Shown here in pieces: positions 8,602-52,136 of a stretch of DNA of 64,000 nucleotides. A program made the translations under genes and the position numbers. Source of the DNA: Candidatus Hydrothermarchaeales archaeon (GTDB lineage: Archaea; Hydrothermarchaeota; Hydrothermarchaeia; Hydrothermarchaeales; JAZGAD01); NCBI GenBank assembly GCA_036444275.1, contig JAZGAD010000014.1:8131-72130 (forward strand), in the 5' to 3' direction. The stretch's first letter is position 1, and each line of letters begins with the position of its first letter. The notes under the pieces were generated by a model. That model had not been told where the DNA came from and made no database searches. It saw nothing but the letters and a program-made list of their open reading frames with translations.

Positions 8602-11600
8602 CTATGGTAGCTTGGCGTCTATTTGGGATAGTCTCTCCTCGTTCTTCTTCGTGAGTTCCTCATATGGCTTGTCAGAGATTATACCCTTATCATGTTGCAT
8701 TTTAATAGTCTCCAGCAGCTTCTTTATCTGCTCTCGCTTCCTCCTCAACTCATCCTCCCGTGAGAGCCTGACTCTCTTCTCTGGCATTGCCCTTGCCCCA
8801 CGCTTCCTCTCCCTCGATAGGACTTCTTTAGTTCCTATTAATGTTTCCAGTCTATGGGACCATCGCAGTGCGAAGTAGCCTACCATCAGCGCTAGTATGA
8901 ATAAGGCGGCGATGATGCCGAAGAAGACCTCTCTTGGTATCAAAGGAGGCACTATGATAGTAGGTGTAGGGGGAAGAGTTGGCGGTAGTGTAGTTGGCGG
9001 TAGTGTAGTTGGCGGTAGTGTAGTTGGTGGAGTTATCACCGTCACTTCTACCATGGCTTTATCTATAAGGGAGCGGGCATCCCTCAGGTAAGTTCTGGCG
9101 CTCTCAAGAGCGGCGAGTGCATCATAGTATCTCTTATCTCTTATAAGATCCTCGGCTCTTCTTATCTCGCTTGTAGCATCTCTCAAGATGGTTAAAGCCT
9201 TGGTTACATTCTTACCTTCCTGAAGTGCTATGAAAGTCTTGTCTTCTACTTCAACTAAGTTTTCCTTGACTTTATCTATCTCCCATTCCAGAAGATCCTC
9301 TATAGATTCGAATACTTTCAGGGTCAGGGATTTCTCGTCTGACGCTTCAATGGACGTGGAGATAAAGGTGATGTTGAATTCCTGGGGGGTTATATTCTTA
9401 GGCACGTCGATCTCGATGACCTGAAGCAGGGTTTTCCCTTTAGCTAGAGTGTCTGCACTGCCCTTTACAAGCTGGAACCACGTAGCTGGTATCCCAATGA
9501 GTTCTGCCGAGACGTTATGTAGGAGTACGCCACCTGTGTTCTCAACTGTTACGGTTAGGTAGCCTGTTCCACCTTTTTCTACGCTTATCTGAGACGGATA
9601 GAAGTCCGTTATGTTCAGTTGAGCTGGTGGTGCTGCCGGTGCTCCCGGTGCTCCCCCTGGGCCTCCTGGAGGGGCAGCAGCTTTTGCCTTTACCTCGAAG
9701 GTTGCACTTGCTGTGGCTGGAGGAGCGTTTGGGTCATAGATGACGCTGACATGCAACGTATAAATTCCGGGGGCAAGATCGATAGCTTTGTCGGTAGTCT
9801 TATTAAAGACATCAGGCACGCCGGTCTCCTTAACTGCCCTAGAGAATGAACTGTTGTATTTTTCTTCTCCAATGATTGTGTAACTAATTATAACATCTTC
9901 CTCGACGAACTCTCCCATGTTGGTCATATTTATGGTGAAGGTGAGATATTCTTCTTGGGCCACTGGATCCTTAATCCATTCAATGATCACATCGTAGGGC
10001 CCGGTTTTGAGTATCCTGAAGGCCTCCATGTCCCAAGACCCAGCCGACCCCTCCTTTGCCTCCAATACCGTTAGATACGAGCCGGTGAGTACTGAGCTCG
10101 AATCGACCTTCTCGGAATAGGTGTAGAAGCCAACTTGGGTGATATTGAAATCTGATTTCGAGAGGTCCCGCCACAGGTCAGGTGAATATCCTTCAGTGCG
10201 ATAGATCTTTACATTTATCGCGTCCGAGTCTATACCGTCTCCTGTGGCTGGATTTATCGTTATTACCGAGACGGTCATTATCTTGTCGAGGTACACGACC
10301 GATGGTATCATCACCTCTGCGAAGAGATCCACAGACACCACGAAGATATCGATGTCGTTGGCTTCATCAAGACCATAAGTCGCTTTTGCTGTCACCAAAT
10401 ATGCCCCAGTGGAGGCATTTGTATCCAGGGTGAAGTTGGCTTTGTATATGAGTCCTACGTCTAGGGTGGCATTGATGTTCTCTTGGATAATGCTACCATT
10501 GGGGGCTGTGACGTTTATGCTCACGTTTGCACCGGGCAATAAGATGCCGTATCCATCCTTGACCACGGCATATATTGTCACAGTTTCTCCGGGTTGATGC
10601 ACATCGCCCGCATCTACATCTAGATACAGAGGTAATCCGGTAATTTCCTTGACAACTTTGAAGGAGTTGGATGCTGAGGCATTCACCCATTTGTCCGCTT
10701 TATCATCGTAGTAGGTGACATTGGCAACCCAGTTATAATCTCCCAGAGTTGCCTTTGAATCCAGCTGGAAGGTTGGATCTGGTCTAGCTTTTCCATCAGC
10801 GCTTGTCGTTGCAGAGAAGTTCAGTATCAGCCAGTTATATGGGTCAATGAGCTGCAGGTTCACATCAGCGTCTCCAACAGGTTGGTCATTCGCATCACCG
10901 ATATAAATTTTGAAGCTCCCAGTGTCGCCCTGCTCATAGGTATCAGCGAGGGTATAGATAGTGAGCTCGAGCTTTGCATAAACCGCGAATTTGCTCTCGT
11001 TTGTTCCCCAGCCGGTGGCGTTGTCGTTGGCATAGACTGTAACAGTATAGTTGCCTCTGAGCGAGGTGTTCGTTACATTGACGGCCCAGCTTGAGGAGCC
11101 TCCTAGTATGTTGGCGGTTATATTACTGAGTTCAAGTAGTTCGGATGTGTTGTCAGGCCGCGTTATGGTTGCCGTGACGTTTGTGATAAGATTCGAAGCC
11201 CTATCAGTGACGTTGACGATTATCATGGCACTGCGTTTCTGCTCGACGTATTGCGAGAGATACACTATTTGCACCGACGGCCCCAGGACTACCGTTATAT
11301 TGGCTGGTATCCACTGGTAGTCTGGGATTGCATCTGCGTCGGTGGCATTAACTGTGTAGTTTGCGGTGTACGTATTATCCACCGCGGCATTCGAGGTGTT
11401 GTAGTTAATCTGGAACCTGTATGCAGAAGTCTTGTTTACTGTAAAGTTGGTCTTATTCGCTAGAGTGAAGTTGCCAGATGCAGGGTTAATGCTTATGTTG
11501 AAGGATATGTTAACGTTCCCGGTGTTGTTTATCTCTACCTCGCATATATTGCCAGTGGCGTTCACCAGCACCGTTTTGGAGCATGATTCGAGAATCTTCA

Positions 11601-14130
11601 TATTCCAGTTCCTGGAGGTGGGCACCGTTATGTTCAAAGTAAGGTTATCCCATCCGCCGTTGACGGAGCTCACGTTTATTGTGCCGTTGTATTCCCCAGG
11701 TGGATAGCCCTCCGGCACACTTACATTGACAGAGATATTCGTCCAATTGCCGGCGTTTACGTAGGCAGTGAAGTTCGGGTAAAAGCTGACGGTGAAGTTG
11801 TCGCATACCTCACCGGAGCCGGAGATGCAGCTTGCAGTGACATTTTCGATTCGATAGTTACCAGTGGAGTTTGCAGTGAAGTTTCCTATCAACCCCTCGC
11901 TTCCCTCTACAACGGTTCCATCCAGCTGGGTCTCGAGTACCTCCAGAATTGGTTGTCTGACTATCTCTATTACTGAAGGCAAATCTGTAGTAGAATTCGG
12001 AGGTGCATCATAGTTCGCCCAGTTCACGGTTGCATTTATCGTGTAGTTCCCAGCCGGCGTTCCAGCTAGCACGGTTATATTGAAGTAGCTCACCCTGAAT
12101 TGGTCCTTTTCTAGGTTATTAAGTAGGAAGGGGAAGGTGACATTGGCTTTGAAGGTTGATGGGAGCGATAGGGTTATATTAGGCGAGTAGGCGGTGCCAT
12201 TTCTGATGTTGGACACATTCGTCATCATCAGGAAGCTCTGGTTGTCGCGTTGCGTCACGTTGTAGACTCTAACGGTGTCATTTGTGAGATTTATCTTGAG
12301 GGTGGTGTTAGTAGCTATTATGGTCCTGAAGTAGTCCTCTCCGTAGCCGGTGTTGTTGTATTTCGAGGCATTGCAGGCAAGGATCCAGGGGTTATATACT
12401 ATGGAGGGAGCTGTGAAGTTCACCGCATAGGTGCCATCATCGTTATCGGTTATGTTTTCAACTACCTTCGGGTCGGTCCCATTAGTATAGTTGCATGTTA
12501 CGTTGGCGTTCGCTATCCATGTGGTGTTTATGTAGTTCTGAACTGATACGTTAGCCTTCACTAGGCCGTCTATGAGGACCACCTTGGAGGAAGGTTGTAT
12601 TATCGAGACAGAAACGCTGTATCTGTCGGTGAGATTGAAGGTGGTGGAACTCAGGTTCAAGAGGTAGCCGTATTTGTCATATACCCTTATGGTGAGATTC
12701 CAGACACCGGTTTGGTTGGCGAGGCCGAAGGTGTAGTTAGCGGTATAGTTGCCGTTCCCTTGGTAGTAAAGGGGTAAGACTATGTCATCGCTAGGATCTG
12801 CAGGGGTGCCCATGTCCAAGGTGGCGTTTGCAGAGGCATTAAGAGTGTGGCTATCATTCGTGACTATGCCAGTTATGTTAACAGTTTCATTTAGGTTGTA
12901 GACGGGGTATTCGGTCTGGGCTTCTACGATGACCTGCCATGCATCTGGTGGACCGCGGGTTGTGATGACATCCTCGTAGAGCCTGTCTTTTAGCTCCTCG
13001 ACTGAGGCGTGAGCCAATGTATCGGTTGATTTGTTGTTGAAAGAGACGACGGCGGTCGCAGAAACTGAGTCTACACTAAACCCGTTAAACCATATGTATA
13101 TCCCTTTTAGTCCGAGTCCTACCTCATACTTATTCCCCGGCGTTCCACTTTCATTTAGATCTATCACTCCTAGACCCAGATTCGAAGTAGGATTGTATGC
13201 GGAGGCATAATATTCAGACGGAACACTTCGAAATTCAACCGTCCCAAAACCTCTAACTGTATCTAACGCAGGGGCGGAGTCAGAGGACGCTCTAGTCTCA
13301 CTACTACCGATCTTCGTGAGGTTGTGTTCGATCTTGATCCAAGGATTATTTTCATAAAAGGTATACCTCTTCTTCATTGCGTATTCGCCAGTTGATGTTG
13401 TTGTACCCCATATTTTCTCGTCTCCAATTTGCTCAACGATTTTCCTGATTGAACCATTAACGACTAGCGTATAATTGTTCCCGAAGTCATACCAATAATA
13501 AGTGACAGCACCATCACTATACTTGATGTACTCCAGAGTATCTTGGTCGGATGGAATGTCAAATATCAGATTTCCGTCCCTAAAGCTCGCATAGTATATA
13601 CCCGAGGTATAATTCACGCTGCGATTAGTATCCACCCTAATCTCCAAGAGGGAATTATTCACCCAGAATTCGTCGCTACTATTTGTATAGGTCAGCTGTG
13701 TGTTGTAGGTGGGAGCTTCTTTAGCTCCGTTTTCTATGGTGTCGAAATAGATGTAGTAGGAATACCTCGTGTTCTCGGGCCTCGTCCCGTTTAGAAGCCA
13801 GACAACCTCGCCTACCGCATTAGATGTGGGTGAATAACCACTTCCCTGGTCGAATTGCGAGGGAATCTCGTACATGAGTTCCCCGGTGGATAAGTTGTAT
13901 TCGAGGACCCTCGTCGAGTTCTCATCAAAGGTCCCGGTTACATTGAGTGCGGTAAAGTTTATCCAGTGCTCAATAGGCCAATCCGTCCTATTGTACGAAG
14001 AAGTATTCACTGTTACGTTAACGCGGTAATGCCAAGAGTTATTCCACCATTTAACAGGTATAGCACTAGCTACCCCTACGTTTAGTACCCAGACTAATAT
14101 ACCTACTACTAATAGGGCTTTTCTATTCAC
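8602..14130 (-). CDS. Large (1,842 aa) type-I membrane-anchored surface glycoprotein-like protein (S-layer/CARDB-like)
   Basis: GTG start. Signal peptide MNRKALLVVGILVWVLNVGVASA. Very dense N-x-S/T sequons. CARDB/COG1361-like segment LNITDFYPSQISVEKGGTGYLTVTVENTGGV. Helical stalk, then the (PPTTL)n linker, TM helix VFFGIIAALFILALMVGYFAL and a ~75-aa basic coiled-coil cytoplasmic tail. Confidence 0.85.
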   Translation of the reverse strand: MNRKALLVVGILVWVLNVGVASAIPVKWWNNSWHYRVNVTVNTSSYNRTDWPIEHWINFTALNVTGTFDENSTRVLEYNLSTGELMYEIPSQFDQGSGYSPTSNAVGEVVWLLNGTRPENTRYSYYIYFDTIENGAKEAPTYNTQLTYTNSSDEFWVNNSLLEIRVDTNRSVNYTSGIYYASFRDGNLIFDIPSDQDTLEYIKYSDGAVTYYWYDFGNNYTLVVNGSIRKIVEQIGDEKIWGTTTSTGEYAMKKRYTFYENNPWIKIEHNLTKIGSSETRASSDSAPALDTVRGFGTVEFRSVPSEYYASAYNPTSNLGLGVIDLNESGTPGNKYEVGLGLKGIYIWFNGFSVDSVSATAVVSFNNKSTDTLAHASVEELKDRLYEDVITTRGPPDAWQVIVEAQTEYPVYNLNETVNITGIVTNDSHTLNASANATLDMGTPADPSDDIVLPLYYQGNGNYTANYTFGLANQTGVWNLTIRVYDKYGYLLNLSSTTFNLTDRYSVSVSIIQPSSKVVLIDGLVKANVSVQNYINTTWIANANVTCNYTNGTDPKVVENITDNDDGTYAVNFTAPSIVYNPWILACNASKYNNTGYGEDYFRTIIATNTTLKINLTNDTVRVYNVTQRDNQSFLMMTNVSNIRNGTAYSPNITLSLPSTFKANVTFPFLLNNLEKDQFRVSYFNITVLAGTPAGNYTINATVNWANYDAPPNSTTDLPSVIEIVRQPILEVLETQLDGTVVEGSEGLIGNFTANSTGNYRIENVTASCISGSGEVCDNFTVSFYPNFTAYVNAGNWTNISVNVSVPEGYPPGEYNGTINVSSVNGGWDNLTLNITVPTSRNWNMKILESCSKTVLVNATGNICEVEINNTGNVNISFNISINPASGNFTLANKTNFTVNKTSAYRFQINYNTSNAAVDNTYTANYTVNATDADAIPDYQWIPANITVVLGPSVQIVYLSQYVEQKRSAMIIVNVTDRASNLITNVTATITRPDNTSELLELSNITANILGGSSSWAVNVTNTSLRGNYTVTVYANDNATGWGTNESKFAVYAKLELTIYTLADTYEQGDTGSFKIYIGDANDQPVGDADVNLQLIDPYNWLILNFSATTSADGKARPDPTFQLDSKATLGDYNWVANVTYYDDKADKWVNASASNSFKVVKEITGLPLYLDVDAGDVHQPGETVTIYAVVKDGYGILLPGANVSINVTAPNGSIIQENINATLDVGLIYKANFTLDTNASTGAYLVTAKATYGLDEANDIDIFVVSVDLFAEVMIPSVVYLDKIMTVSVITINPATGDGIDSDAINVKIYRTEGYSPDLWRDLSKSDFNITQVGFYTYSEKVDSSSVLTGSYLTVLEAKEGSAGSWDMEAFRILKTGPYDVIIEWIKDPVAQEEYLTFTINMTNMGEFVEEDVIISYTIIGEEKYNSSFSRAVKETGVPDVFNKTTDKAIDLAPGIYTLHVSVIYDPNAPPATASATFEVKAKAAAPPGGPGGAPGAPAAPPAQLNITDFYPSQISVEKGGTGYLTVTVENTGGVLLHNVSAELIGIPATWFQLVKGSADTLAKGKTLLQVIEIDVPKNITPQEFNITFISTSIEASDEKSLTLKVFESIEDLLEWEIDKVKENLVEVEDKTFIALQEGKNVTKALTILRDATSEIRRAEDLIRDKRYYDALAALESARTYLRDARSLIDKAMVEVTVITPPTTLPPTTLPPTTLPPTLPPTPTIIVPPLIPREVFFGIIAALFILALMVGYFALRWSHRLETLIGTKEVLSRERKRGARAMPEKRVRLSREDELRRKREQIKKLLETIKMQHDKGIISDKPYEELTKKNEERLSQIDAKLP
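8981..9025 (-). repeat. 3 x 15-bp perfect tandem repeat encoding the PPTTL linker
   Basis: ggcggtagtgtagtt occurs three times in a row (8981-8995, 8996-9010, 9011-9025). It translates on the minus strand as TTLPPTTLPPTTLPP, just outside the TM helix. Confidence 0.9.
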
Positions 14131-14166
14131 TTTCTCTGCCCCTGGGTCATTTGTTCCTCATCGGGT

Positions 14167-14212
14167 AATCCTAATGCGTTTACATAGACAATCCTAATGC
14201 GTTTACATGGAC
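14167..14212. promoter_or_regulatory. 2 x 23-bp tandem direct repeat (aatcctaatgcgtttacatRgac) 37-82 nt upstream of the 1,842-aa gene
   Basis: 14167-14189 and 14190-14212 differ at one base. Each copy carries GTTTACAT[A/G]GAC (14178-14189, 14201-14212). Confidence 0.6.
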
Positions 14213-14217
14213 GGTTC

Positions 14218-14424
14218 CTAAACTCCCTTACGACCCTTACTATGAAGCCCGCATATCCTCCTTATATATACCTTATCACCCGGGGCTATATACCTGGGCC
14301 ACGCATCCGGCTTCTCCAAAGCAGGGAATACGACGCTGTCCAGAACCGGTAAAGCCCCAGTTATTTGTATCTGTGGATCAGATGAAGAACGGATTACATC
14401 CCCCATCTCTCCCTTTGGTCTCAT
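14218..14424 (-). CDS. Hypothetical 68-aa protein
   Basis: The ORF has ordinary amino-acid composition and an upstream GTTAC-rich AT region. No family recognised. Confidence 0.3.
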   Translation of the reverse strand: MRPKGEMGDVIRSSSDPQIQITGALPVLDSVVFPALEKPDAWPRYIAPGDKVYIRRICGLHSKGRKGV

Positions 14425-14547
14425 CTTTGTTTATTATATTCAACAAGGTTAGGCTTTAATTTTGGGTTACAGTTACGTAAACAAAAGTTACAAAAAAGTT
14501 ACAATAAAGGCACCAAGAGCGCTGCTTGCTTTAGCTTGGGGGAGGAC

Positions 14548-15270
14548 TCACTCGGCCTTCCTGCGGCGCTTTTTCAATTTCTGTAGGGCTTCTACCCGTT
14601 TCTCTAACTCGACCAGTTTCAGCTCTCTACTCAGGGTCCTCTTGGAAAGCTTCTCAAAGTCGAATGTCTTTTCTTGGAGCTCTTTCTCCAGAATCTTTAT
14701 CTCGGTCGTGTCCTTACCTATGCACTGGATTTCCAAGAGCCTGCCGTCGCTCTTTATGGCTGCGAGCTTCAACTCCAAGATTTTCTTGCCATACACCGTG
14801 TTTATCTCGGCTTCATAAGGGGGAAGGAATTCTGTCTTGCCCAACTCACCCAGCTTATCGAAGAACGTTCTGATCCCTTCAGATGAGAGGAACATAGCAA
14901 ATGATTTGCCAATGACTTCTTCTCTTTTGTACCCCGTGATCTTTTCGGCCTTTTTGTTGAAGGATATGATCTTCCCCTCTATATCCAGTGTGAAAACAAA
15001 GTCTCCGGTGTTTTCAAGGAGCTCGCGGCGCTTTTCTCCAAGTTCTTTTAGGATCCTTTGCTCCTTGCTCATACCCATGAATAACTTTCCCAGAAGCAAG
15101 CCGAATAAGAAGCCCAGAGCGATATGAAAAAAGATGCGCACCGATGGATCGAAATAGCCCCCTAAAAAGTACCCCAGCACTTGGACAAGGACTGCTAAGG
15201 GGACGACGAGGAAGAACTTGCTCATGAGAGCCATTTTCTGCAGTTTCGTAAAGGTTTCTCTCAGCCCCAT
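14548..15270 (-). CDS. Membrane-anchored PAS-domain protein with C-terminal coiled coil (no output domain)
   Basis: Two N-terminal hydrophobic helices (FFLVVPLAVLVQVLGYFLGG, IFFHIALGFLFGLLLGKLF). PAS core ENTGDFVFTLDIEGKIISFNKKAEKITGYKREEVIGKSF. K/E-rich helical tail. Confidence 0.75.
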   Translation of the reverse strand: MGLRETFTKLQKMALMSKFFLVVPLAVLVQVLGYFLGGYFDPSVRIFFHIALGFLFGLLLGKLFMGMSKEQRILKELGEKRRELLENTGDFVFTLDIEGKIISFNKKAEKITGYKREEVIGKSFAMFLSSEGIRTFFDKLGELGKTEFLPPYEAEINTVYGKKILELKLAAIKSDGRLLEIQCIGKDTTEIKILEKELQEKTFDFEKLSKRTLSRELKLVELEKRVEALQKLKKRRRKAE

Positions 15271-15398
15271 AAATAAGACATATCTCTGTTTGTTTATATC
15301 TTTGTCTACTTTCGTTTTGCAGTTGTGAAGCTTTCACAACAATTTTTGAGTAAGTTAAGTCTTACTTCTCTAGAGTAAGGATTATAAAAGGTGGTCAC

Positions 15399-15656
15399 AT
15401 GGCTGAAGTGGTAAGTGTTTCAAGCAAAGGGCAGATAGTAATCCCAAAAGAGATAAGGGACGCGATGGGAATAGTGAAGGGTGAGAAATTCGCTGTAATA
15501 AGCGATAGAGATGCAATACTTCTGAAGAGGCTCAAAGATAGCGACTTAAAGAAGAGGATGTATAAGCTACTAGACTATTTCTCAGACAAATTCGGAGAAG
15601 CAGGCATAACAAAAAGCGACATTGAGAAAGAGATTGCAGAAGCACGGCGACGCTAA
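15399..15656 (+). CDS. vapB: AbrB/SpoVT-type antitoxin
   Basis: VSSKGQIVIPKEIRDAMGI swapped-hairpin motif. Its stop overlaps the start of the PIN gene. Confidence 0.8.
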   Translation: MAEVVSVSSKGQIVIPKEIRDAMGIVKGEKFAVISDRDAILLKRLKDSDLKKRMYKLLDYFSDKFGEAGITKSDIEKEIAEARRR

Positions 15657-16063
15657 TGCTTAGAGTTGTTTTGGATACAAACGTTTTGATATCTGCTATT
15701 GGTTGGAGGGGACATCCCAGAAAGGTGCTCGCTCTCTGTATAGACGGAAAATTAACCCTCATGCAAACACAAGAAATGTTGAAAGAGTTCGAAAGAGTTT
15801 TGCAAAGGGCGAGATTCACTTTTATACATGCAGAGAAGAAGCAAGAATTATTGCGATATTTAATAGACATTTCAATTAAGGTAACGCCAAAGGAAAACGT
15901 AGAAGTAATCAAGGAAGACCCCGACGATAACAAATTCTTGGATTGTGCTGTAGCCGGAAAAGCAGATTACATAGTTTCTGGTGATCGGCATTTGTTGAAG
16001 TTGAAGGAACACAAAGGCATTAAAATTGTAACCGCCTCTGGATTACTTAAGGTTCTAATCTGA
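15656..16063 (+). CDS. vapC: PIN-domain toxin (VapC-like)
   Basis: VVLDTNVLISAI...DDNKFLDCAVAGKADYIVSGDRHLL carries the conserved acidic residues of PIN nucleases. Confidence 0.8.
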   Translation: MLRVVLDTNVLISAIGWRGHPRKVLALCIDGKLTLMQTQEMLKEFERVLQRARFTFIHAEKKQELLRYLIDISIKVTPKENVEVIKEDPDDNKFLDCAVAGKADYIVSGDRHLLKLKEHKGIKIVTASGLLKVLI

Positions 16064-16170
16064 TAGTAGTGCATTGACGGTGAGGGTGAGAAAGGTAAAA
16101 TACGGCTATCTGGCAAGTATATGTAATGTATAGCCCCTGAGGCTAAGTAGGCTAATTTGCACTTCTTCTT

Positions 16171-16382
16171 TGTATCTAAGATAAAGATTACATTACGCCA
16201 TTTGGATTATCTAACGAATAAGAAATTTCGAAAGATATATAAAATTCTAGTATTAACTAATATACTATCTATTTTTAAGCTTTTTTTAAATTCATTTTTA
16301 AAAATAGAATTAATTTTTATTATATATTGTAATTAAAGACAAAATAATATTCTATATAATCTAAAACATATTTATTCTATCC
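16171..16382. other. Extremely AT-rich ~210-bp block inside a ~890-bp non-coding region
   Basis: Runs such as ttttaagctttttttaaattcatttttaaaaatagaattaatttttattatatattgtaattaaag. It is clearly more AT-rich than the flanks and has no ORF. Confidence 0.7.
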
Positions 16383-16728
16383 CGATACTTGCATGCAGTG
16401 TTGCACTTTTCATGGCAGTGAATATTTATGCAATAGGTCTATGACAGAATTATATAGAGGACTTACAAAGTCCTCGGAATCCAATGTTGAAGGTTAAAGA
16501 TTTAACACTTCATTATTAATACCGTAGTATACCACTGAATCTCTTGACAAACTCGAAGGAAAAGGATTTGAGGCTTATTCAGTTCATAGTGCTTGAGGGT
16601 AGTGGAAAGGGCACTAGTCATTATAAAAAACTTTAACTTAGCTTCCTCTGCGGATTATGCCCGGTAGATTGACCTTTTTTCCCACTTGAGCATTGGATCA
16701 TTTGCCAGCTTTTTCCACCTCGCGATAT

Positions 16729-16746
16729 GTTTACATTGACGTAAAC
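16729..16746. promoter_or_regulatory. Palindrome GTTTAC-attgac-GTAAAC carrying the third copy of GTTTACATNGAC
   Basis: gtttacattgacgtaaac has 6-bp perfect arms and a 6-nt spacer, ~210 nt upstream of the wHTH gene. Confidence 0.5.
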
Positions 16747-16886
16747 CCTTTCACTGGATTCTCTTAGCATTTTCCACTGGAAACATACCTTTTGGCCCCT
16801 ATAAGTGCTTTCTCAGCTCGTTTTTGATCCCAGAAAACCATGTGCATATCTGCTCTAACGCGGTACGCTAGCGTAACTCTAAAAAT

Positions 16887-16912
16887 ATATACTTCCGGGA
16901 CCAGAAGTATAT
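16887..16912. promoter_or_regulatory. 9-bp perfect inverted repeat overlapping a TATA-like box upstream of the wHTH gene
   Basis: ATATACTTC-cgggacca-GAAGTATAT, directly after aaaaatatat (16881-16890). A 12-nt perfect palindrome TACGCTAGCGTA lies at 16864-16875. These sit 40-90 nt upstream of ATG 16954. Confidence 0.45.
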
Positions 16913-16953
16913 CGAGATATTTGGAGCAGTTCGGTAAGTTATAAATATGCACC

Positions 16954-17193
16954 ATGTGGGGGGCAAGAAGCATGCAATTATCCCGAGTCGATAAACGCAT
17001 CATAAGCGTTCTAGTAGAAAAGAAGCCCAAGTCCCGTTCTACCTATCAAATCGCCAAGAAGGCCGGGATTTCTTGGTCTACTGCTATAGCGCACTGCTAC
17101 AAGCTCAAGGCAGATGGAATAATCGATGGAGAGACAGAGAAACCGAAATTTGGAAGCAGAGACACAATAGTTTGGAGGAAGAAGAAGGAATAG
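16954..17193 (+). CDS. Small winged-helix-turn-helix DNA-binding protein
   Basis: RIISVLVEKKPKSRSTYQIAKKAGISWSTAIAHCYKLKADGIIDG follows the wHTH layout seen in MarR/ArsR/TrmB-like small regulators. The start could instead be ATG 16972. It ends 30 nt before the giant ORF. Confidence 0.6.
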   Translation: MWGARSMQLSRVDKRIISVLVEKKPKSRSTYQIAKKAGISWSTAIAHCYKLKADGIIDGETEKPKFGSRDTIVWRKKKE

Positions 17194-17222
17194 GAGACAT
17201 TTTTGGAATCTAACGTGGGAAC

Positions 17223-20200
17223 ATGAAGTTTAAACCTCCCAGTAGGATATTGGCAGCATGGATATTACCATTTATACTAGCTTTAGCTATCTTTAGTTCT
17301 TTATTACAACCTTCTAGTAGTATTACTATACTAAACCCTAATGCTCATCCAAAGCTAGGGGACAACTGGAGCATCCACTTTTCTACCACAGGCTCTGGTA
17401 TTCTGGAGATCTACGACCACTCCTTCCCAGAGGAAGTCGAGTTCATCGGCTTGTACGCCGAGATAGACGATGAGTACAAGAAGGTCCAGGTGAGCATCAA
17501 AGGAGACTTGATAACTGCTAACTGGCACTACTCCTCTGGTGAAGCGATCTTCAAGGTTCTAACACCTCAGGAGCATTCTCTCGAGTTCAGGTTTGGAGAG
17601 CAGGTGGTCTATGCATACAACTTCGCTGACCTGCTTATCAACCTGACTGCTCCGTCTCAAGTCGCCAGGGGGCAGGTTATTGAGATTGGCGGTGAGGCAA
17701 GGAATCACGACTTGGCAGATGTCTCCTTGATCTATGTCTTGCCACAGGGCTTCGAGGTTGTTTCAGGCGAGAAGGTGAAGCACTGTGGAACCGGTTATCT
17801 TTGCGAGAGCAGTTTGGTTGTGGATACCTCTAAGGCAAAGCTTGGAGAAGGCGTAATAAAGCTCCAGGGATGTGCCTACGGCGTATGTGAGAGCGAGAGC
17901 ATTAACATCTTTGTGGATCGGGTGCTGACTGAGAAGGGGGAGCCTGTGCAGGAAGAGGTAGAGGTAGGCAAGCCTGTGCGCTGGAGGCAGCACATCCAGG
18001 TTAGGAATCCCCTGCATGCTCCTGTTTTCAATTATTCTCTGCCCCTGCCAGAGGATGCGTCTGGTATTGCTGCGCCGGTTATTGAGGAAGTTAAGCCTGG
18101 ACAGAAACTAGGCTTCGACGTGATATTCTACACCGGGCCAGTGGAAGTAGAAGAAGAAGATCGTAACATTTCCCTGCGTTCTCTGATTCCAAAGAATGCC
18201 TTGAACATAAAGATAGATGGGAAGGTAGCTGACGCGGGCGCTCTAGATATTGAAATACCTGCTAAATTGGTTCGAGTGAAACATAATGCTTCGTTGCACT
18301 ACCGCGATATACCTGTAAGCATAGGCGTTTCAACGAAAGAGGTGACAGTATTCTATGATGCCAATGCCGGGGTGCTGGATGTTAACTCTGGTCAGCTAGA
18401 AGTTGTGGAGGGCGAGGTTTTGGGAGATCAGCTGACTTGGGTTGTGCCCAAGCTCTCTGAGAAGAGGTATTGGATAGCGCAGGTTCAAAGGACTCAAGGT
18501 AAGGCAGAAGTGAATAAGACTGTTGGTTGGACTCTGAAAGCCGGCGGTACAGTTGTCGAGTACGAGACGCCTGCGCCTGTTATGGAGGAGATACCGGTAG
18601 AGAATGGCACCCAGATGAGGGTTAAGAGCGATGTAAAGTACTCCAATGTAACTGCAACGGCTAGTGTTCCAGAGGGAAAGAATCGCACGTTACGCGTAAA
18701 TGGGAAAGGGGAGTTTAAGTTTGCAGATGTGCCGAGCTTTGAGGTTGAGGCTACTGAAACGGGCCATGCTCTCTATTGGCTCAATGGAAGTGTAGAGCTC
18801 TTCAACGAGAGCAGGGATGTAACTAGCGATTCCGCGCATTCAGTTAGCTTCTTTGACGCTAACGGCAATGGCGTAAATGACAGCGTAACTTGGAACATAC
18901 CCACCCTTTTGGAGCAAAATTACCTATTACAAGAGACAGCAAAGGTAGCGGAGATTCGAGCACGAGTCGAGGATGCCAAGGGCTATAGATTGCCGGTTGC
19001 TCCTGAGATCAGGCTTGTCGACGGGAAGTATAAAGTAACGATCCCGCAGGGCAGGGGGGTAAAGCCTGGGTTATACAAGCTCGTCGTTGAATCGGAGGCT
19101 GGTGTAGAGGAGCTGTGGTTTAAGTGGGGACTGATATCGATAAACACCAAGAAGAGTATGTATCATCCTGGCGAAGAAGCTGAGATACTAATGGTTGTAC
19201 TGGACAAGGAGGGCCATCTCGTCTCTAACGCGGACGTCTCTTTTGTAGTTACTAATCCGATTGGTGTGCCTACGTTCTTCACGACGGACGATGGTTCGAT
19301 CGTTGAAACTCAAAGGGGAATATACGAAGCAAGCTATCTAACTTTTCTGGAAAGCAATTATTCGCTCTTTGCCACTGCTAGTGCAGATGGGGTGGCAAGC
19401 ACTATCAATTCATATTTCACAGTCAAGGAGTACTACGAGTTCGATATCCTAAGGGATACACCAGTGACCATTGATCCTCAAAGAGGACCCTTTGATTCCT
19501 CTATAAAGGTGGTTTCATATACCGATGCATCTACTTTCACCCTGAGGGAATACTTACCGGCAGAATTTTCGATAGTTGATGCGGGCGGAGCTAAAGTTAC
19601 TGTCGTCAACGACACGAAAGTATTGGAATGGAGCGATATTACCAATGGTTCAAAGGTTAGCTACAAGTTCAACACTCCTTACATCTGGCCTTACCTCTAC
19701 ATGATGGGACCGGCGGAAGTGGAGTATGCTTCTGGCACGTTTATAGAGGCAAGGCCGTGGATGCTGGCGGTTGATCCCTCAACTTGTGAAGGTAATACGT
19801 GCTATGAATGGTTTGAGGATACGCCGGGATATAGTGCTTCTGATGGTAGTACAGAAACTTATGAATGGACACCTCAGTCGTGTCCTGGGACATTAAACTG
19901 TTATATCCAAAATATCACGGTTAAGTTTAGGTTTACGAATCCATTTTCAGCGATCCGAACTGGGTTCGAAATCTATTTTAGCAACATGTCTGGGGGAACA
20001 ACGTATTATTACCCAGCATATCATGGGGCACTAAGTGCAGGAGGCCAAGTTGGTCCACAGTGGGCGTGTAACTATACTGACAGTGCACAACCCTCAGGGT
20101 ATTTAAATAACACCTGCAACTTAGCGCCGAGTGACGGATTTAACAAAACTACCCATAATGTAACTCTTGTTGCGCCGGGTAAAACCTTAACAGATGTATT

Positions 20201-23200
20201 AAACATAAAATACAAATGGGTCTGGACTCCAGCAATGCCACAATTGAGCGATGTAACCGTCACGCCTTCTTCCGCTGGTTGGGGAGCCCTCCGGAACTTC
20301 TCAGCATTTTACACAGACCCACAAGGCGACGCAGGCAACGTGACATTGTTCGCGAAGACCTCAACTAGCGGCTCCTTCACCTCCAAAAATCTGACAGCCA
20401 TCACAAACGGTACGACCGCGTCGATATTTTACCGTTTTGACATCACCGACTTCGAAGCGCTCGGCGTCGGGTGGGAGTACAGGCTTAACGCATCTGACAA
20501 TAATACTCCACCAAACTCCTACCTGACCAGTTCCTACACATTCACTGTCACCAAGGATGCCACCACCTTCCAGAACACAGAAGGCGACGGTGCCGTAATC
20601 AACCGCAGTGACTCTCTTCCAAACAATACTGTCCCTCTCTGGTCTTACATCTACGATATGGAAAATGAGAGTCTCGCACGTGCTAATTCCGCCGCAGGAA
20701 AAATAGAGGGGAGAATATGGATTAACAAGAACGCCAGCGCCGGATACGTGGGCACGGATGCCCACAGCGCAGAGACCGACAGTGATGGTAAATTCAAGGG
20801 CACCACAGAACTCTTCAACGCAAGCGGTTATTTCAACCCTGGCTGCACTTACACCACGGGTCAGCACGTCTGGTACGCTGAGACGCTGGCCCACACAAAC
20901 TACACCCAGAACGACACCCTAGCCATCAACAGCGGCAACAACTACACGCTTTACATCTGGGGGACCCTGAGCAACTCCATAACATCGCCAGATCCACCCG
21001 GCAAAGAATATACGGTAGGCGAAAACGTGCCTCTCTACGGCACAGTCTATGATGATTGCAGTGTCCTCGTAACAGATGCAAATGTTACCTTCCGCGTGTA
21101 CAATGCTACCCTTGGAGTAGATGATAACCTAACTGCGAGCTACAACCCTCCCCAGAACCGCTACGAAGCTTCCTGGAATTCCACGGGAAATAGTACTGGC
21201 ATCTACCAGGTGGAGATGATATCTAACAAGAGTTACCACCCCGTGGACACCGCCCAGACGAACTTCACACTCGTGGAGCTGATAACACTGAACTGGACCG
21301 TGGTTCAGGGAAATGGCTCGATCAGCAACAGAACAGGTGAAGAGATTAACACCCTGGTAGTGAGGATAACCGATGACGCCACAAATCCGGTAACGAATGA
21401 GAACGCAACCCTCTGGATCACCTACGATGGGACCAACTCTATACAGAAAATCACCAACGAATCAAACAGCTCCGGATATCTCGTATATGATTTTAATGCG
21501 ACCTGCGACCTCGATGTGGGTGAGCAGGAATGGAAATTGGTTATGCAGGACACAACCGAGTTCCAAAATCCGAACTCTTGGGATGATGGAAATGAGTATT
21601 ACACGGATATATGGGGAACCACAACCCTTGATTTTGCTTATCCAATTGCCGGAATCTATGATATGGGTGGCCTGATAAGGCATGAAGGCTACGTCTACGA
21701 CGACTGTGGCAGCGAGCTTGACGGTGCGACGGTCAATTTCACCATTGTCGGGCCGTCAACCAGTCCATCTCCATATTACTGCGAAAACGTCGAGGCGCCT
21801 CTAGCAGGCTTATACAAATGTAACTCTACCGCGGGGGAAGGTTGGGACTCATCTGGAATGGACGAGGGATGGTACAACTCGACGATAAATGTATCCAAGA
21901 GTTACCACTACAACAACAGCGTGATAAAGACCAATGGAACCCAGTCTCTCTTCAACCTCCGGCTTACACCACCTGACCTGTTCGACGCGGATGTCCAACC
22001 CAGAAAAGACGGCTGGGGCAAAAACTACACCTTCGCGGTTAACATCACCTATGCGGCTGGAAAAAACGTTAGCGTACTCCTGTACTATCAGCCCCAGTTG
22101 ATGGAAGAAGAGCTTCTTGCATCCACCGGAAACTTTACCCTACCCTCATATACATATGCTGTCAACTTCACCGATCAGACCTTTAACTCGACTCTGGTTG
22201 ATAAGACTGTCAAATTCAGGTATGAGATTAAATACTATCCACCCGGTCTGGGTGAACAGAGCGTCTGGACGACAATAACCGAGACGGGAGACTACAACCA
22301 GTCTAATACTACGGGTGTGGATGACAACGAGTTCTATTTGGAGAAGGATGATGTTCTCCTGAATTATTCTGCTGGGAATGAGTCCACCGCAAGCCTCCAG
22401 GTAGAAGCGACTTTTGTACTCCGCATCTGGGATATAACTCGGGGTGTCTGGATTAACGCGACCTCTACTTCTGTGAAGTTCAACGTAACTAAGAACTGGC
22501 CGAGTTCTGAAAATGTGACGGTGAATACTACGACGACGAATGCGACTGGCTATGCTTTTACGGATTTCTTGCCTGACACGAGCTACAGCTCGGGATTGCA
22601 GAAATGGTTCGGATATATCCCGGATACTGATCCCTATTACAAATTCAATGTCTCTGATATCTTTGATGTTAATCTTTCTATTCATCCACCGCAGCTCGTC
22701 AATGCCTCGGTGGATAAGACGACGGCTGGTTGGGGTGTGAATCGCACCTTCAGTGTAGAGGTAACTGATACTGTGGACAACGCCACCGTAAGCCTCTGGA
22801 AGACTGATACAAGTGGATTCGTAGCAGATACAAACTGGACTTTCATAGCTGCGAAGAATTATACGGATGTCGGCAACTGGACGCAGCTTAACTTCACCAC
22901 TAGCTTTTCACCGTCGGATATTGGGGGCTGGTATTACAAGTTCAACGCGAGCGACATCGCTGGAAACACCAATTATACTAGCGAGTCTTCCTATACTTTC
23001 ACCGTCGACAAGGACGATGTTATCTTGGAGTACGTCCAGGGAGATGATTCCCCAGCGAATAGGTCTGACAATCAAATCGACCGCTTGATCGTAAAGGTGA
23101 AGGATGAGAATGGCTCGTACATCGGTAATCTTAGTGTGACTTTCAAGGTGACCTTTGATGGCTCTATCTATGATACGGGTACGGCGAACAATACGAATAC

Positions 23201-26200
23201 CTCCGGCTACGCGATCTACAACTTCAATCCCGGATGCAGTAGTCCAAAGTACGGGGTGGGTGTGCAGAACTGGACCGCGGTGAGCTCGGAAACGAATGCC
23301 TATAAGTCCAATTCATCTTCTATTTACAACCTCACAATATGGGGTGATAACGTCATCACTTTCGATAGGCCTGCCCCGTATCCGACTGGCTATTACGCTG
23401 TAGGTGATAGGGTGCCCTTCCGGGTCCTCATTAAGGATGAATGCGGCGATGAATTAGGGAAAAATGAAGACTCGGATAAGGAGGTGAAGTTTTATGCTAT
23501 AGGCCCGGATACTTCGCCGCAGACATATGACTGTGGAACTGTCTCCTCTAGTCTTACCGGTCTCTATGAATGTGAGAGCGCTGCTGGCGGTTGGAACACT
23601 ACAGGAAAGTCTGCGGGAGACTATAATGCTACTGCGGACGTATCTCTCGCTTATTACTACATCAACAACTCGATAAACAATAGGATCGTACCGGAACGTG
23701 ATAACCTCACTCTGGCATCTGGTTCCGGTTGGTTCAGGCTTTATGTTCCATCTCAGCCCCCTGATCTCACCGCTGCGGACGTTAACCCTAGGAAGGACGG
23801 TTGGGGCAAAAATCGAACCTTCTCGGTGAATGTGACAAGCCCCAAGAGCGGGAAGAACATAACTGTGGTTCTCGAGGTGAAGAAGAGCGGAGAAGATTAT
23901 GCTCAGATCGGCGATGCCCAAAACTGGACTTCAGGCGGTACCGGTAGTTCTAAGATCCTTGAATGGAATGTCTCCTTTTATCCGGCGAATGTCTCTGTCT
24001 TACCCTACAAATTCAAGTTCACTGCGACCGATGAGGATTTGGAAGAAGATGTGACCAACATCCCGGCCGAGTATACGAATACTACACCCCTTGAAGGCAT
24101 AGACGAGAACGAATTCAAAATCGAGAAGGACGATGTTCTCCTGAATTACACCGCTGGAAACGGGTCCCTCGTAAATCTTCAGGTAGAAGCGACTTTTGTG
24201 CTCCGTATTTGGGATATAACTCGGGGTGTCTGGGTCAACACGACCTCTGCCTCTGTGAAGTTCAATGTGACCAAGAACTGGCCGAGTTCTGAAAATGTGA
24301 CGGTGAATACCACGGCGACGAATGCGACTGGGCATGCTTTTACGGATTTCCTGCCTGACACGAGCTATAGCTCGGGATTGCAGAAATGGTTCGGATATAT
24401 CTCGGATACTGATCCCTATTACAAATTCAATGTCTCTGATATCTTTGATGTTAATCTTTCTATTCATCCACCGCAGCTCGTCAATGCCTCGGTGGATAAA
24501 GAGACGGCTGGTTGGGGTGTGAATCGCACCTTTAGTATAGAGGTGAGAGATACAGTGGATAACGCCACATTGAGCCTCTGGAGGTCAAGCCAGATTGTTG
24601 GCCAACCTTGGTATCTCATAGCTGAGAAGAATTATACTGATGTGGGAAATTGGGTTCAACTGAACTTCACCACCAGCTTTTCACCGTCCCTTATAGATAC
24701 GTGGTATTACAAGTTCAACGCGAGCGACATCGCAGGAAACACCAACAGCACGGATGTTGTATCCACGCGTAACTTCACTATCGATAAGGACGACGTCATC
24801 TTGGAGTATGTTCAGGGAGATGATTCTACAGCGAATAGGTCTGGCAATCAAATCGATCCCTTGATTGTGAAGGTGCGGGATGAGAATGGCTCTTATGTCG
24901 GTAATCTTAGTGTGACTTTCAAGGTGACTTATGATGGCTCTAACTACGATAGTGGTACGCCGAAGGATACAAATGGCTCTGGATATGCGATCTACAACTT
25001 TGACCCTGTTTGCACTCCAACAAAGTATCAGGTGGGTGTGCAGAACTGGACAGCGGAAGTCTTAGAGACGAATGCCTACAAGTCGAACTCGTCTTCTATC
25101 TACAATCTCACTGTGAGGGCTGAGTTCAACAACACCATTACTAAGCCGCCGGGAAATGAGAACTATACTTTGGGTGATACCCTTACCTTCCAAGCAGTTA
25201 TCAGGGATGACTGCAACGATAACCTTGACGGGGTAACAGCCAACTTCTATGCCTCCAATGCCACCGTTGAGTATGACTGCGGCAATGTAACACTCATCCT
25301 CTCGGGAACGGGTATATACGAATGTACGTGGGCATCTGGTTTAGCAGAGGAGGGATGGTACAATGTAACATTGAACACTACCTTGGGCAACTACCACTAC
25401 TACAGCGATACCACGAAGTACGATCAACCCGGTCTCTTCTACCTGTTGTTTAAGGAACAACCCCCTGATCTAAACTCGGCTAATGTTACTCCTAGGAAGG
25501 ATGGCTGGAGTCTCAACAGGACTTTCACGGTCAACGTAACAAGCCCCAAGAACGGGAAGAACGTCACCGTATGGCTAGAGTTGAAGAAGGGCGGAGGCTC
25601 CTACAACCCCGAGGGTGACGAGCAGAACTGGACTTCAGGCGGTCCCGGTAGTTTCAGCATCCTCGAATGGAACATTTCCTTCTCCTCAACTGATGTTGAC
25701 CTCTGGTTCTTCAAATTCCAGGCTAAGGATGCGGATGGGGTGACGGATACTACCTCTTTGACCGAGTCTGGCGATTATGTCAATGATACTAACGAGTTCA
25801 ACGTCGAGAAGGACGATGTGAATATATCCTACATCTATGGAAACGAAACCGAGATCGCGACCTTATCCAACCCGTCTACCTTCATACTTAAGATTTGCGA
25901 CGAGGACGCAAACACATGCAACCTGACACCCAGTGCGAAGGTCAAGTTCAACGTGACCAAAGATGGTATTGGAACCGATTACTACGCCGCACGTGGTACG
26001 GATGGGAACGATTATAACTACACCAACGGCACTGGACATGTGGTCTTCGAGTTCCTTCCAGATACTAGCTGGAATTCGACTAAGCAGAGCTGGATCGGCT
26101 ATGTTGTTGATGACTACTACAACTTCACCACGTCAGGCACCTACAATGTCACAGTGGATTTGAATAAGAATCCGGACATCCTAAACGAGACCGTGAACGG

Positions 26201-50471: not shown

Positions 50472-52136
50472 GTGCGTGCTATGGCTGACGAAGAGAGGGA
50501 CCCGACATTACAGGAGATCTTACTCAAGCTTGAGAAGATAGATGGAAAGCTGGAGATAGTGGATAGATTCAGAGAAACCACTGACGAGAGATCCTCCAGG
50601 CTGTCTGAGCAGATAGGCGAACTGCGCACCATGCTCCTGGAGAGGGAGCGGACCTCGCGGAACATGGAGATGGACTTCGAGAAGATAAAAGTCCTGGTGA
50701 AAGAACTAGATCCAATGGCCCTTGTAAAGGAGTCAGAAAAGAAAGAGAAGAAGATCATCGAGAACAAGGTCAAGGTAGAGAAACTTGAGAACATGATCGC
50801 AAAGCTCGGTGAGGAGGTCGGAGCTTTCAGAGATGTGATGGAGAAGATAAAGAGCTTTGAGAACCTCGTGGAGATGGCCAAGGATGTGAAGAAGAAGATC
50901 TCAGATATAGAGGACAGTAAGAGATACACAGATAGGCTTGCTGGGAAGGTGGAGAGCATCTTCTCAGAGCTGAACGAGAAGATCCTAGAGCTGGAGGAGT
51001 ACAAGGGGAAGATAACGAAGGCAGACGAGCTGACCAAGGAGCTTGTGAAATCGACGGACAGGCTCGAATTAAAGCTCGGCGACGTAGCAGAAAGGACAGA
51101 TAGGCTTCCCACAGTTGTTGAATTCGAGGACAAGATCGAGGGTCTCGCTGCCTCGATGCGTTTCCTGACAAAGAAGATCAGAATGCAGGAGCTGGATGAG
51201 GTAAGCAGCGACCTGGGCAGAAGGATGAAGGAACTCAGCACAGGGATGCCTGAGCTGGAGAGGGTGAGGGAGCTTGCAGGGGAGAGGAGGAGAATCATGG
51301 AGCTCATGATGAGTGTTGATGAGGACTACAAAAAAGAATTAATTTCCAAGGAGAGCTACGAAGAGGTGAAGCGGAAGAACGAGGAGATGCTCAAAGGCAT
51401 CAAAGAGTCTATAAAGACAGATCTGGGCCACCTGGTGAGCTCTCTAGAAGTGGAAGTCGAGCAGGAACTGGAGAAGTTTGCTGAGACTATGCCCACCGAG
51501 GAAGAATTGGAGGCAGAGATAGAGGTGCCTGAGCCTCTGATTCCAGCTCCAGAGGAATTCAAAGCAGAAGCACCTGCGTTTGAGGCACCGCCACTAGAAA
51601 TAGGGGCAGAAAAAGGAGAATTTGAGAAAGCCTTTGAGAGGCAGGCAGAGGCTTTCCCAGAATTTAAACCGATTCCGCCGCCCGCTGGAGTAGAGCCCGA
51701 ACCGAAAGTAGTTAAGCCAGAGCTTAAGGTGGAGCCTAGGGTGGAGCCTGTGAAGCCGAGGATAGAACCAAAAGTAGAGCCTAGGATAGAGCCGAAGGTA
51801 GAAGCGAGAGTAGTTAAACCAGAGCCTCCGACGCCTGTGAAAGTACCGGTTGCCGCAGAGCAAGCGGTAAAGCCAGAAGCAGTAACTGTTAAGGCAGAAG
51901 CACCTACCCCAAAACCATCGTTGGCGCTTGAAAAATTAGATGCCGCTTCTATCGAGAATAAATTGAATGTAATAGAGACCGAGAGGGGGGTGGTTCAGAA
52001 CCTCCTTGATGGTCTTTCCGCTGAATTGGATTATAGAAAACGAGAGCAAATGGAAAAGAGATATGGGGATAGGCTAGAGAAGATATCTCAGACTCAAGCT
52101 GAGTTAAAGAAGCTGAAAGAGAGGGCAGCGCCCTGA
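50472..52136 (+). CDS. Long coiled-coil protein (554 aa) with P/E/K/V-rich repeat region
   Basis: Starts 13 nt (GTG 50472) or 22 nt (ATG 50481) after the giant ORF stop. It has heptad-like E/K/L composition throughout and no TM helix. Repeat block EPKVVKPELKVEPRVEPVKPRIEPKVEPRIEPKVEARVVKPEPP at nt ~51700-51830. Confidence 0.75.
   Translation: MRAMADEERDPTLQEILLKLEKIDGKLEIVDRFRETTDERSSRLSEQIGELRTMLLERERTSRNMEMDFEKIKVLVKELDPMALVKESEKKEKKIIENKVKVEKLENMIAKLGEEVGAFRDVMEKIKSFENLVEMAKDVKKKISDIEDSKRYTDRLAGKVESIFSELNEKILELEEYKGKITKADELTKELVKSTDRLELKLGDVAERTDRLPTVVEFEDKIEGLAASMRFLTKKIRMQELDEVSSDLGRRMKELSTGMPELERVRELAGERRRIMELMMSVDEDYKKELISKESYEEVKRKNEEMLKGIKESIKTDLGHLVSSLEVEVEQELEKFAETMPTEEELEAEIEVPEPLIPAPEEFKAEAPAFEAPPLEIGAEKGEFEKAFERQAEAFPEFKPIPPPAGVEPEPKVVKPELKVEPRVEPVKPRIEPKVEPRIEPKVEARVVKPEPPTPVKVPVAAEQAVKPEAVTVKAEAPTPKPSLALEKLDAASIENKLNVIETERGVVQNLLDGLSAELDYRKREQMEKRYGDRLEKISQTQAELKKLKERAAP

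Follow-up and report, generated by a model that had tools for sequence, protein, structure and literature searches.

S-layer gene promoters of the Euryarchaeota (slp/csg) are strong and are used as constitutive promoters in the Thermococcales and in methanogens, and archaeal regulators usually act at or beside the transcription factor B (TFB) recognition element (BRE) and the TATA box, or at the start site. The archaeal TATA box is an AT-rich element of 8 bp. Its consensus in M. jannaschii, TWTATATA, has its centre about 30 nt ahead of the start site; most natural promoters differ from it at several positions, and the BRE is variable among them (PMC2699501). Here we examine a 64,000-nt stretch of DNA (the window) on contig JAZGAD010000014.1 of a Candidatus Hydrothermarchaeales archaeon, from the uncultured Hydrothermarchaeota, formerly Marine Benthic Group E, within which Candidatus Hydrothermarchaeum profundi is placed (PMC6775978). 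In this window a bipartite element occurs twice in the same orientation: upstream of the gene for a 1,842-aa secreted S-layer-like protein, and again in the non-coding spacer ahead of an operon for a small winged helix-turn-helix (wHTH) protein and a giant surface protein. We tentatively interpret it as a promoter-plus-leader cassette present twice, one copy driving the S-layer-like gene and the other being an orphan or the promoter of a divergent transcript, a reading to which we give a little less than an even chance. Most likely the element is a promoter feature of an ordinary archaeal sort, one more instance of feature types already known.

Two copies of a bipartite element

On the minus strand, each place has the sequence GTC[T/A]ATGTAAAC followed, after 24 nt, by CAAATGA[C/T]CCA: at copy 1 GTCTATGTAAAC and CAAATGACCCA (14189 to 14143), and at copy 2 GTCAATGTAAAC and CAAATGATCCA (16740 to 16694). 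Compared in fixed register, their identity runs 11/12, then 5/24, then 10/11, then 13/43. Only 3.8e-4 of random registers hold a block such as the second within 70 nt. Across 79 kb (the window and a further 15 kb of the source contig, the scope of our wider searches) CAAATGAYCCA occurs at these two places only, and the composite ATGTAAAC-N(14-34)-AAATGAYC gives two matches against 0.00 expected; the composite is absent from all fetched loci except pieces of the same contig. Since both blocks are far better conserved than the 24-nt stretch between them, we regard the bipartite, directional similarity as real. The heterogeneity of identity (P ~6e-4 against a uniform 55% identity) points to two constrained blocks and not to even decay, and the view that the two places share a non-random cis-element is thereby supported by sequence comparison.

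The first block contains a 12-mer that a sequence-only reading of this stretch had singled out as a common operator of both surface-protein loci. An exact scan of both strands of the window with GTTTACATNGAC returns exactly three matches (shuffles give 0.06), with the coordinates and sequences that had been described, and extending it to the further 15 kb adds none. All three are intergenic, with no copy in coding DNA across the 79 kb. The window has no one-mismatch variants, the other 26 hits all carrying two mismatches, and in fetched loci other than the source's own the word is absent apart from two single chance hits. As that reading had recognized, two copies lie in a 2 x 23-bp tandem repeat (14167-14189 and 14190-14212, 96% identical) and the third in the palindrome GTTTACattgacGTAAAC. 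With its three copies all within 2.6 kb, the word resembles neither a dispersed repeat nor a fragment of a miniature inverted-repeat transposable element.

The chance figure offered earlier for this word (about 0.03 expected, three seen) was overstated because the word, picked after it had been seen, was treated as pre-specified and one tandem duplication event was counted twice. When a single repeat copy is kept, some 11-of-12 match between the 59-nt upstream region and a shuffled 908-nt spacer arises with a probability of 0.13, and many exact 11-15-mers are common to this spacer and unrelated parts of the window. Among 718 hexamers tested for enrichment in the three spacers that separate the two big genes, GTTTAC comes third (p = 0.004); this does not survive correction for multiple testing, and we therefore rejected the word as an enriched half-site. 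The 12-mer finding is thus weak when taken alone, since its p value is about 0.13, many other words are shared and no corrected GTTTAC enrichment is seen. These results would suit a third copy that is a chance match, with the tandem repeat alone being real: the 12-mer by itself has p = 0.13-0.18 and local alignments of the regions are not significant. A second block matching at 10 of 11 positions and identical spacing speaks strongly the other way, as does the uniqueness of both blocks to the two places in 79 kb, and we hold coincidence to be very improbable.

Other routine explanations fit poorly. The copies do not look like integration (att) direct repeats, as the similarity is bipartite and imperfect and no integrase or transposase lies between them. 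Explanations at the RNA level were rejected: no Rfam hit at E <= 1 was obtained in 13800-17400, no tRNA was found, and there is no stable fold.

A proposed promoter and leader for the S-layer-like gene

At copy 1 the 23-bp repeat places two AT-rich boxes in tandem upstream of the GTG start codon (Table 1). The 8-mer in the proximal 12-mer (TTTACATA / TATGTAAA) is one position off the generally known archaeal box-A pattern TTTAWATA. Its position corresponds to that of TATA boxes in orthologues, namely TTTATATG at -56..-49 in locus L013 (corrected for an ATG at 10001), GATATATC at -60..-53 in L177/L178 and TACATATA at -59..-52 in L008; in all four loci an AGGAG or GGGG Shine-Dalgarno sequence follows at -14..-7. 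In three leaderless genes of the contig (those for the PAS protein, a 62-aa open reading frame (ORF) and the wHTH protein) the TATA box precedes the ATG by 21-24 nt; two of the three boxes end in TAAAC (GATATAAAC, ATAATAAAC). Applied to the S-layer-like gene, this TATA-to-ATG spacing places the predicted start site just before the 11-mer that forms the second block.

The leader itself can be compared with that of L182, a fragment recovered by a search with the N-terminus only and, at 55% identity over the N-terminus, the nearest orthologue of the S-layer-like protein. It holds the related TAAATGACCTA, followed by GGGGCAGAAACATG / the conserved GGGGCAGA; since both recur there, we regard the 11-mer and the ribosome-binding region as conserved leader features. 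In a MAFFT alignment the two 12-mers fall opposite two AT-rich boxes of a promoter module of the relatives (see below), the distal one opposite ATATATAC, a placement to which we give little weight.

Together these features suggest that the 12-mer serves as the TATA-like, AT-rich box of a core promoter of archaeal type, within a minus-strand cassette. At copy 1 the TATA-binding protein (TBP) and TFB would bind TATGTAAA at -56..-49, and transcription is predicted to start near 14152-14156, yielding an mRNA with a leader of ~22-27 nt that opens with the 11-mer and carries the GGGG Shine-Dalgarno; the 23-bp tandem duplication would have doubled the box. Copy 2 has the same orientation within the 908-nt spacer and points away from the wHTH-giant operon. 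From its candidate box AATGTAAA, a short, unannotated minus-strand transcript may start near 16703-16707 and cross a 22-codon ORF and a run of six T; alternatively, copy 2 may be an orphan left by rearrangement of a variable region. The wHTH-giant operon would use its own TATA box TTATAAATA, with the wHTH gene leaderless.

Two small ORFs are found at these sites. MTQGQRK, of 7 codons (14127-14150, minus strand), starts inside the 11-mer, and its TGA overlaps the GTG of the S-layer-like gene (GTGA); the 22-codon ORF at copy 2 (16636-16701) opens with the same M-(T/I)-Q. The former is possibly a leaderless upstream ORF or a means of translational coupling.

We favor the duplicated cassette because of the bipartite similarity at the same spacing, the orthologue TATA geometry, the likeness to a TATA box and the leader conservation in L182, and also because promoter cassettes are shared in the clade, a relic of the wHTH promoter is present in the spacer and the wHTH operon is served by a conserved, correctly placed TATA box of its own. 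The interpretation is built on the sequence itself, the geometry, conservation by blocks and the positions seen in orthologues; binding by TBP and TFB, the start sites and any activity of copy 2 are predicted from these. Several observations weigh against it. The proposed box has a G in its middle, and no clear purine-rich BRE lies upstream (GGATTG at copy 1, GGTTTAC at copy 2). By homology with the relatives' module, GCATTAGG, lying 9 nt further downstream, could be the TATA box instead. When the two regions are compared by gapped local alignment, p is 0.09-0.12, not significant alone, and MAFFT does not place the 12-mers of the two regions in register; since both methods miss the similarity, the bipartite argument rests on the fixed-register test. 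The putative copy-2 transcript has no Rfam match and no unusual fold (z = -1.0), and its 22-codon ORF is without support. Finally, a TATA box alone does not account for the copy-2 palindrome, nor for the conservation of that palindrome's right arm in L181, a contig with the closest relative of the wHTH gene.

The third 12-mer and control of the wHTH-giant operon

The palindrome bears on the operator proposed earlier. In that alternative a factor, possibly the 73-aa wHTH protein, would bind GTTTAC sites and couple the S-layer-like gene to the wHTH-giant operon, acting as a dimer on the palindrome and through direct repeats that overlap the S-layer-like promoter. The dyad, with 12-bp centre-to-centre spacing, would suit a winged-helix dimer; the run GTAAACCC, to which its right arm belongs, is conserved in L181. 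Like many repressor sites, the direct repeats overlap the proposed TATA box. Of the seven GTTTACRT words in the 79 kb, five fall in the three spacers that separate the two big genes. The wHTH gene is also a conserved neighbor of both gene families, its product being modelled as a canonical winged helix.

The geometry argues otherwise. The third 12-mer has the orientation of the copies at the S-layer-like gene, so that the bipartite element faces away from the operon it was supposed to control, and it ends 198 nt upstream of that operon's TATA box, farther out than archaeal regulators usually act; the claim of an operator in front of both big genes is not supported here. The copies at 14178 and 14201 show no dyad symmetry, being direct repeats without an inverted partner or second half-site. 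An element adjoining the regulated promoter is seen at the S-layer-like gene and not at the wHTH-giant operon. Moreover, a further same-orientation block 24 nt downstream is unexpected for a simple operator, the GTTTAC enrichment does not survive multiple testing, and the orthologous promoters lack the 12-mer, sharing another module instead. What stands of the original proposal is the shared cis-element, the winged-helix model and the conserved neighborhood; we regard the shared operator as unlikely.

Better-conserved candidates lie nearer the wHTH promoter. The closest wHTH relative (64% identity) is encoded on L181 (JAZHCL010064077.1), an 845-nt contig that ends inside the palindrome, so that the comparison begins at the right arm. 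Its 250 nt upstream of the wHTH gene align with window positions 16741-16971, with five conserved runs of at least 8 nt (GTAAACCC, CTTTCTCAGCTC, AGCGTAACTCTA, TCGAGATATT and TATAAATA). The best-conserved upstream block (18/19 positions) reads GTACGC[T/C]AGCGTAACTCTA and includes the perfect palindrome ACGCTAGCGT; a 26-nt palindrome at 16887-16912 is only partly conserved against L181. The conserved blocks of 16808-16921, notably ACGCTAGCGT, appear to be better candidate control sites for the wHTH operon than the 12-mer. The TATA box of this operon is conserved in L181, and L013, L008 and L177 have theirs at an identical distance from the wHTH start; no TATA box lies in the 29-nt gap between the wHTH and giant genes.

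The cluster of GTTAC words upstream of the 62-aa ORF had been viewed as related to the operator. Its four pentamers (14466, 14472, 14487, 14498) and ACGTAAAC (14475-14482) are indeed present; nevertheless, the cluster is terminator-like, because it forms a T-rich tail after a hairpin just past the PAS stop codon. Archaeal terminators are oligo-T signals. The hairpin comes from the list of a bacterial-type promoter scan, whose promoter output is uninformative for an archaeon. ACGTAAAC shares GTAAAC with the right half of the palindrome, as had been remarked, but nothing beyond GTAAAC is common with the other sites.

A promoter relic in the spacer

A further feature of the 908-nt spacer is an inverted, decayed duplicate of the wHTH TATA box and the first ~9 codons (local alignment score of 17; null, 10.4 +/- 1.2; p = 0.002), which shows that the spacer contains duplicated promoter pieces. 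In relatives, genes for IS240-type transposases, KaiC and toxin-antitoxin systems occupy the corresponding interval. The stretch separating the two giant genes appears to be a rearrangement hotspot where pieces of promoters are duplicated. Searches of the spacer by tblastn and tblastx for coding relics (AbrB-336, KaiC, transposase, a small wHTH paralogue) found none. An AT-rich island at 16180-16400, between the PIN gene and the wHTH relic, has a GC content of 17.5% against ~45% for the contig and many short inverted repeats.

A close variant of the cassette interpretation follows from this setting: an insertion or a segmental rearrangement may have duplicated the S-layer-like promoter, leader and first codons, with 16694-16740 now decaying and only 14143-14212 at work. 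The two copies are direct repeats bracketing a 2.55-kb segment of accessory-type genes, which in the window holds the toxin-antitoxin pair, the PAS gene, the AT-rich island and the wHTH relic, as the relatives' interval holds its mobile and toxin-antitoxin genes. Another promoter relic in the same spacer fits this picture, and the start-codon regions are faintly similar after a 4-nt shift (AAGTGAATAGAAAAG vs AAGTGGGAAAAAAGG, 14/30). Even decay, on the other hand, would hardly leave identity in two blocks around a random-looking 24-nt spacer of exact length (the P ~6e-4 given above), and the neighboring GTAAACCC is conserved in L181. We consider a dead relic improbable, about on a par with the shared operator.

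The wHTH protein and the relatives of the locus

The AlphaFold model of the 73-aa protein is a canonical winged helix (predicted local distance difference test score 84; order H-S-H-H-S-S). Its fold matches are to MarR/ArsR/Phr-type domains, the TFE winged-helix domain and Z-alpha domains, none of them specific, and its Pfam hits fall just under the cut-offs; DNA binding is plausible from the model. Among solved structures its best sequence matches are the Z-DNA-binding Z-alpha domains of PKZ (E = 0.0014), with Lrp-type HTH domains ranking behind them.

Relatives of the wHTH gene are few; in L013, L177, L178, L008 and L181 it is a conserved neighbor of the S-layer-like and giant genes. The order wHTH, divergent AbrB-336, S-layer-like gene recurs in L013, L177, L178/L179 and L008; a giant gene lies nearby in L013, L177 and L008, and in L181 the wHTH gene directly precedes it, as in the window. 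A general rule that the wHTH gene always stands beside a giant gene was rejected: the more distant homologues P0004 and P0005 lie between genes for an XPF/Hef-type nuclease and for a 321-aa protein paired with a ParA-type protein.

A 45-60-nt promoter module, GTATATAC ... TATATA ... GTATTTCC[C/A]ATATACATATAG, lies upstream of the S-layer-like, wHTH/AbrB-336 and giant genes of these relatives; it is found in L008 and L013 (Table 1) and also in L177, L178, L180, L054 and L182. The 12-mer, by comparison, is absent from the S-layer-like promoters of L013, L177, L178, L008, L054, L180 and L182, so that the conservation looked for upstream of orthologous loci is missing from all seven, which have this different module instead. 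A comparison of promoters from ~130 DPANN loci gave AT-rich upstream regions too distant to bear on the 12-mer. The reuse of one promoter cassette at envelope genes in the clade is real, its sequence differing from that of the window's cassette. Because the three promoters of the relatives share a conserved module, common control of the S-layer-like, wHTH and giant genes is plausible for the clade. Genes for IS240-type transposases and repeats of AACTTAACAA often adjoin the module.

Proteins homologous to the last 1,000 aa of the giant protein, and to the product of the 554-aa gene that follows it (50472-52136), are encoded within 10 kb of a ~1,950-aa S-layer-like gene at 57 and 58, respectively, of 92 genome-scan loci (L013-L092 range), mostly from DPANN genomes. 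In the homologue P0008 a giant-type N-terminal domain is fused to an S-layer-like protein. The three families look, from these neighborhoods, like a conserved envelope gene cluster.

Gene map and setting

The gene content of the contig looks archaeal, with KaiC, an Arf/Ras-type GTPase with Roadblock, and F420 and methanopterin enzymes. The best relative of the 1,842-aa protein, at 40% identity, is in Candidatus Hydrothermarchaeum profundi JdFR-18, and genome and metagenome scans found no relative above 40% identity. The 62-aa ORF shows good leaderless geometry, with ATAATAAAC 22 nt ahead of its ATG. Neither a Pfam hit nor a homologue among the 92 loci was found for it. The 11,078-aa ORF contains internal ~1-kb repeats of 83% identity (22320-23335 and 24102-25111).

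The window matches NCBI contig JAZHCD010312760.1 (GCA_044240385.1, 112.8 kb) but for one unit of a 15-nt repeat. This unit, GTTGGCGGTAGTGTA (8978-9022), is present in three copies in the window and two in the NCBI record, the sole difference over 20 kb; the extra unit makes the S-layer-like protein 1,842 rather than 1,837 aa, and the repeat is a linker of variable copy number. The left extension of the source contig was accordingly joined 15 nt short, counts and coordinates being unaffected.

Table 1. Features of the region around the two copies. Positions are those of the window unless a locus is named; offsets are relative to the GTG of the S-layer-like gene unless an ATG is named.
Feature	Position	Strand	Remarks
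S-layer-like protein gene	8602-14130	-	1,842 aa, secreted; member of a ~1,950-aa family with MG2 and NEW3 domains
GGGGCAGAGAAAGTG	14128-14142	-	Shine-Dalgarno-like GGGG (-12..-9) and GTG start codon
Leader block CAAATGACCCA	14143-14153	-	-23..-13; 24 nt downstream of proximal 12-mer; predicted transcript 5' end
2 x 23-bp tandem repeat	14167-14212	-	GTC[C/T]ATGTAAACGCATTAGGATT twice on gene strand; -82..-37; 96% identity
Proximal 12-mer GTCTATGTAAAC	14178-14189	-	-59..-48; plus-strand reading GTTTACATAGAC; holds TATGTAAA, proposed TATA-like box, at -56..-49
Distal 12-mer GTCCATGTAAAC	14201-14212	-	-82..-71; plus-strand reading GTTTACATGGAC; second AT-rich box 23 nt upstream
62-aa ORF	14218-14406	-	
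GTTAC cluster	14466-14502	-	PAS-strand reading GTAAC, then T6, T4 and T3 runs, after hairpin 14522-14510
PAS protein gene	14548-15270	-	
AbrB/MazE-PIN toxin-antitoxin pair	15399-16063	+	
Non-coding spacer			908 nt, between toxin-antitoxin pair and wHTH gene
Decayed inverted copy of wHTH TATA box and first ~9 codons	16371-16433	-	ATAAATAT ... CCATG ... GCATGCAAGTATC
Second leader-block copy CAAATGATCCA	16694-16704	-	24 nt downstream of third 12-mer
Third 12-mer GTCAATGTAAAC	16729-16740	-	Plus-strand reading GTTTACATTGAC; same orientation as copies at S-layer-like gene
Palindrome GTTTAC-N6-GTAAAC	16729-16746		Right arm + CC = GTAAACCC (16741-16748), conserved vs L181
CTTTCTCAGCTC	16808-16819		Conserved block vs L181 (window 16808-16921 vs L181 89-200)
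GTACGCTAGCGTAACTCTA	16863-16881	+	Best-conserved upstream block vs L181
Perfect palindrome ACGCTAGCGT	16865-16874		Within 16863-16881 block
TCGAGATATT	16912-16921		Conserved block vs L181
TATA box of wHTH-giant operon TTATAAATA	16939-16947	+	-33..-25 from ATG 16972; leaderless geometry
wHTH protein gene	16972-17193	+	73 aa; ATG at 16972
Giant surface protein gene	17223-50459	+	11,078 aa; 29 nt past wHTH stop codon
Promoter module sites, L008	973-1098, 2107-2183, 4720-4810		
Promoter module sites, L013	7030-7130, 8820-8896, 9908-10000		

Implications and comparison with known systems

If the promoter interpretation holds, the result is routine annotation: it would locate, for a very large envelope gene of an uncultured archaeon, both promoter and leader, and would show promoter copies scattered by a rearrangement hotspot between the two giant genes. 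It also corrects an over-reading: a rare word counted three times amounts to two events, and both its orientation and its distance speak against a role in controlling the giant operon. A broader possibility is an envelope regulon, in which the wHTH protein would bind GTTTAC-type sites and co-control the S-layer-like gene, the divergent transcript and its own operon with the 11,078-aa protein, the last through the conserved 230-nt upstream region. We think this a long shot; if true, it would give this uncultured phylum a first cis/trans pair for genes of the cell surface. The pattern across the clade, in which these envelope genes always have a small winged-helix gene beside them and relatives reuse one module at all three, may give the region a wider interest.

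Among described systems, the operators of Phr, SurR, TrmB, Lrp and MarR-type regulators resemble the locus in its 6-N6-6 dyad and in a neighboring protein with Phr-, MarR- and ArsR-type fold matches. Unlike these, which overlap or abut the promoter that they control, the dyad in the window is separated by ~200 nt from the closest mapped TATA box, the remaining copies have no dyad, and the 73-aa protein is without a sensor or dimerisation domain. The slp/csg promoters are comparable in standing ahead of the gene for a very large, secreted envelope protein rich in glycosylation sequons, with a predicted leadered mRNA and Shine-Dalgarno; nevertheless, the ~1,950-aa family of the window (MG2, NEW3; DPANN and Hydrothermarchaeota) is not a characterised S-layer protein. 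The promoter module of the relatives shares with the window's cassette the same three gene families, the reuse of a cassette and two AT-rich boxes ~23-27 nt apart; its sequence differs, and the window's cassette stands at the S-layer-like gene and an orphan site, not at the wHTH or giant genes. With the archaeal core promoter of M. jannaschii and the Thermococcales, the element has in common an AT-rich 8-mer one step off the consensus, a second constrained block at the expected transcript start, and a proposed box ~50-60 nt before a Shine-Dalgarno-preceded start codon, at the distance seen in orthologues, with the same TATA-to-ATG spacing in the other promoters of the contig. It departs from that model in a box with an internal G/C, without a recognisable BRE, and tandemly duplicated at a 23-bp period.

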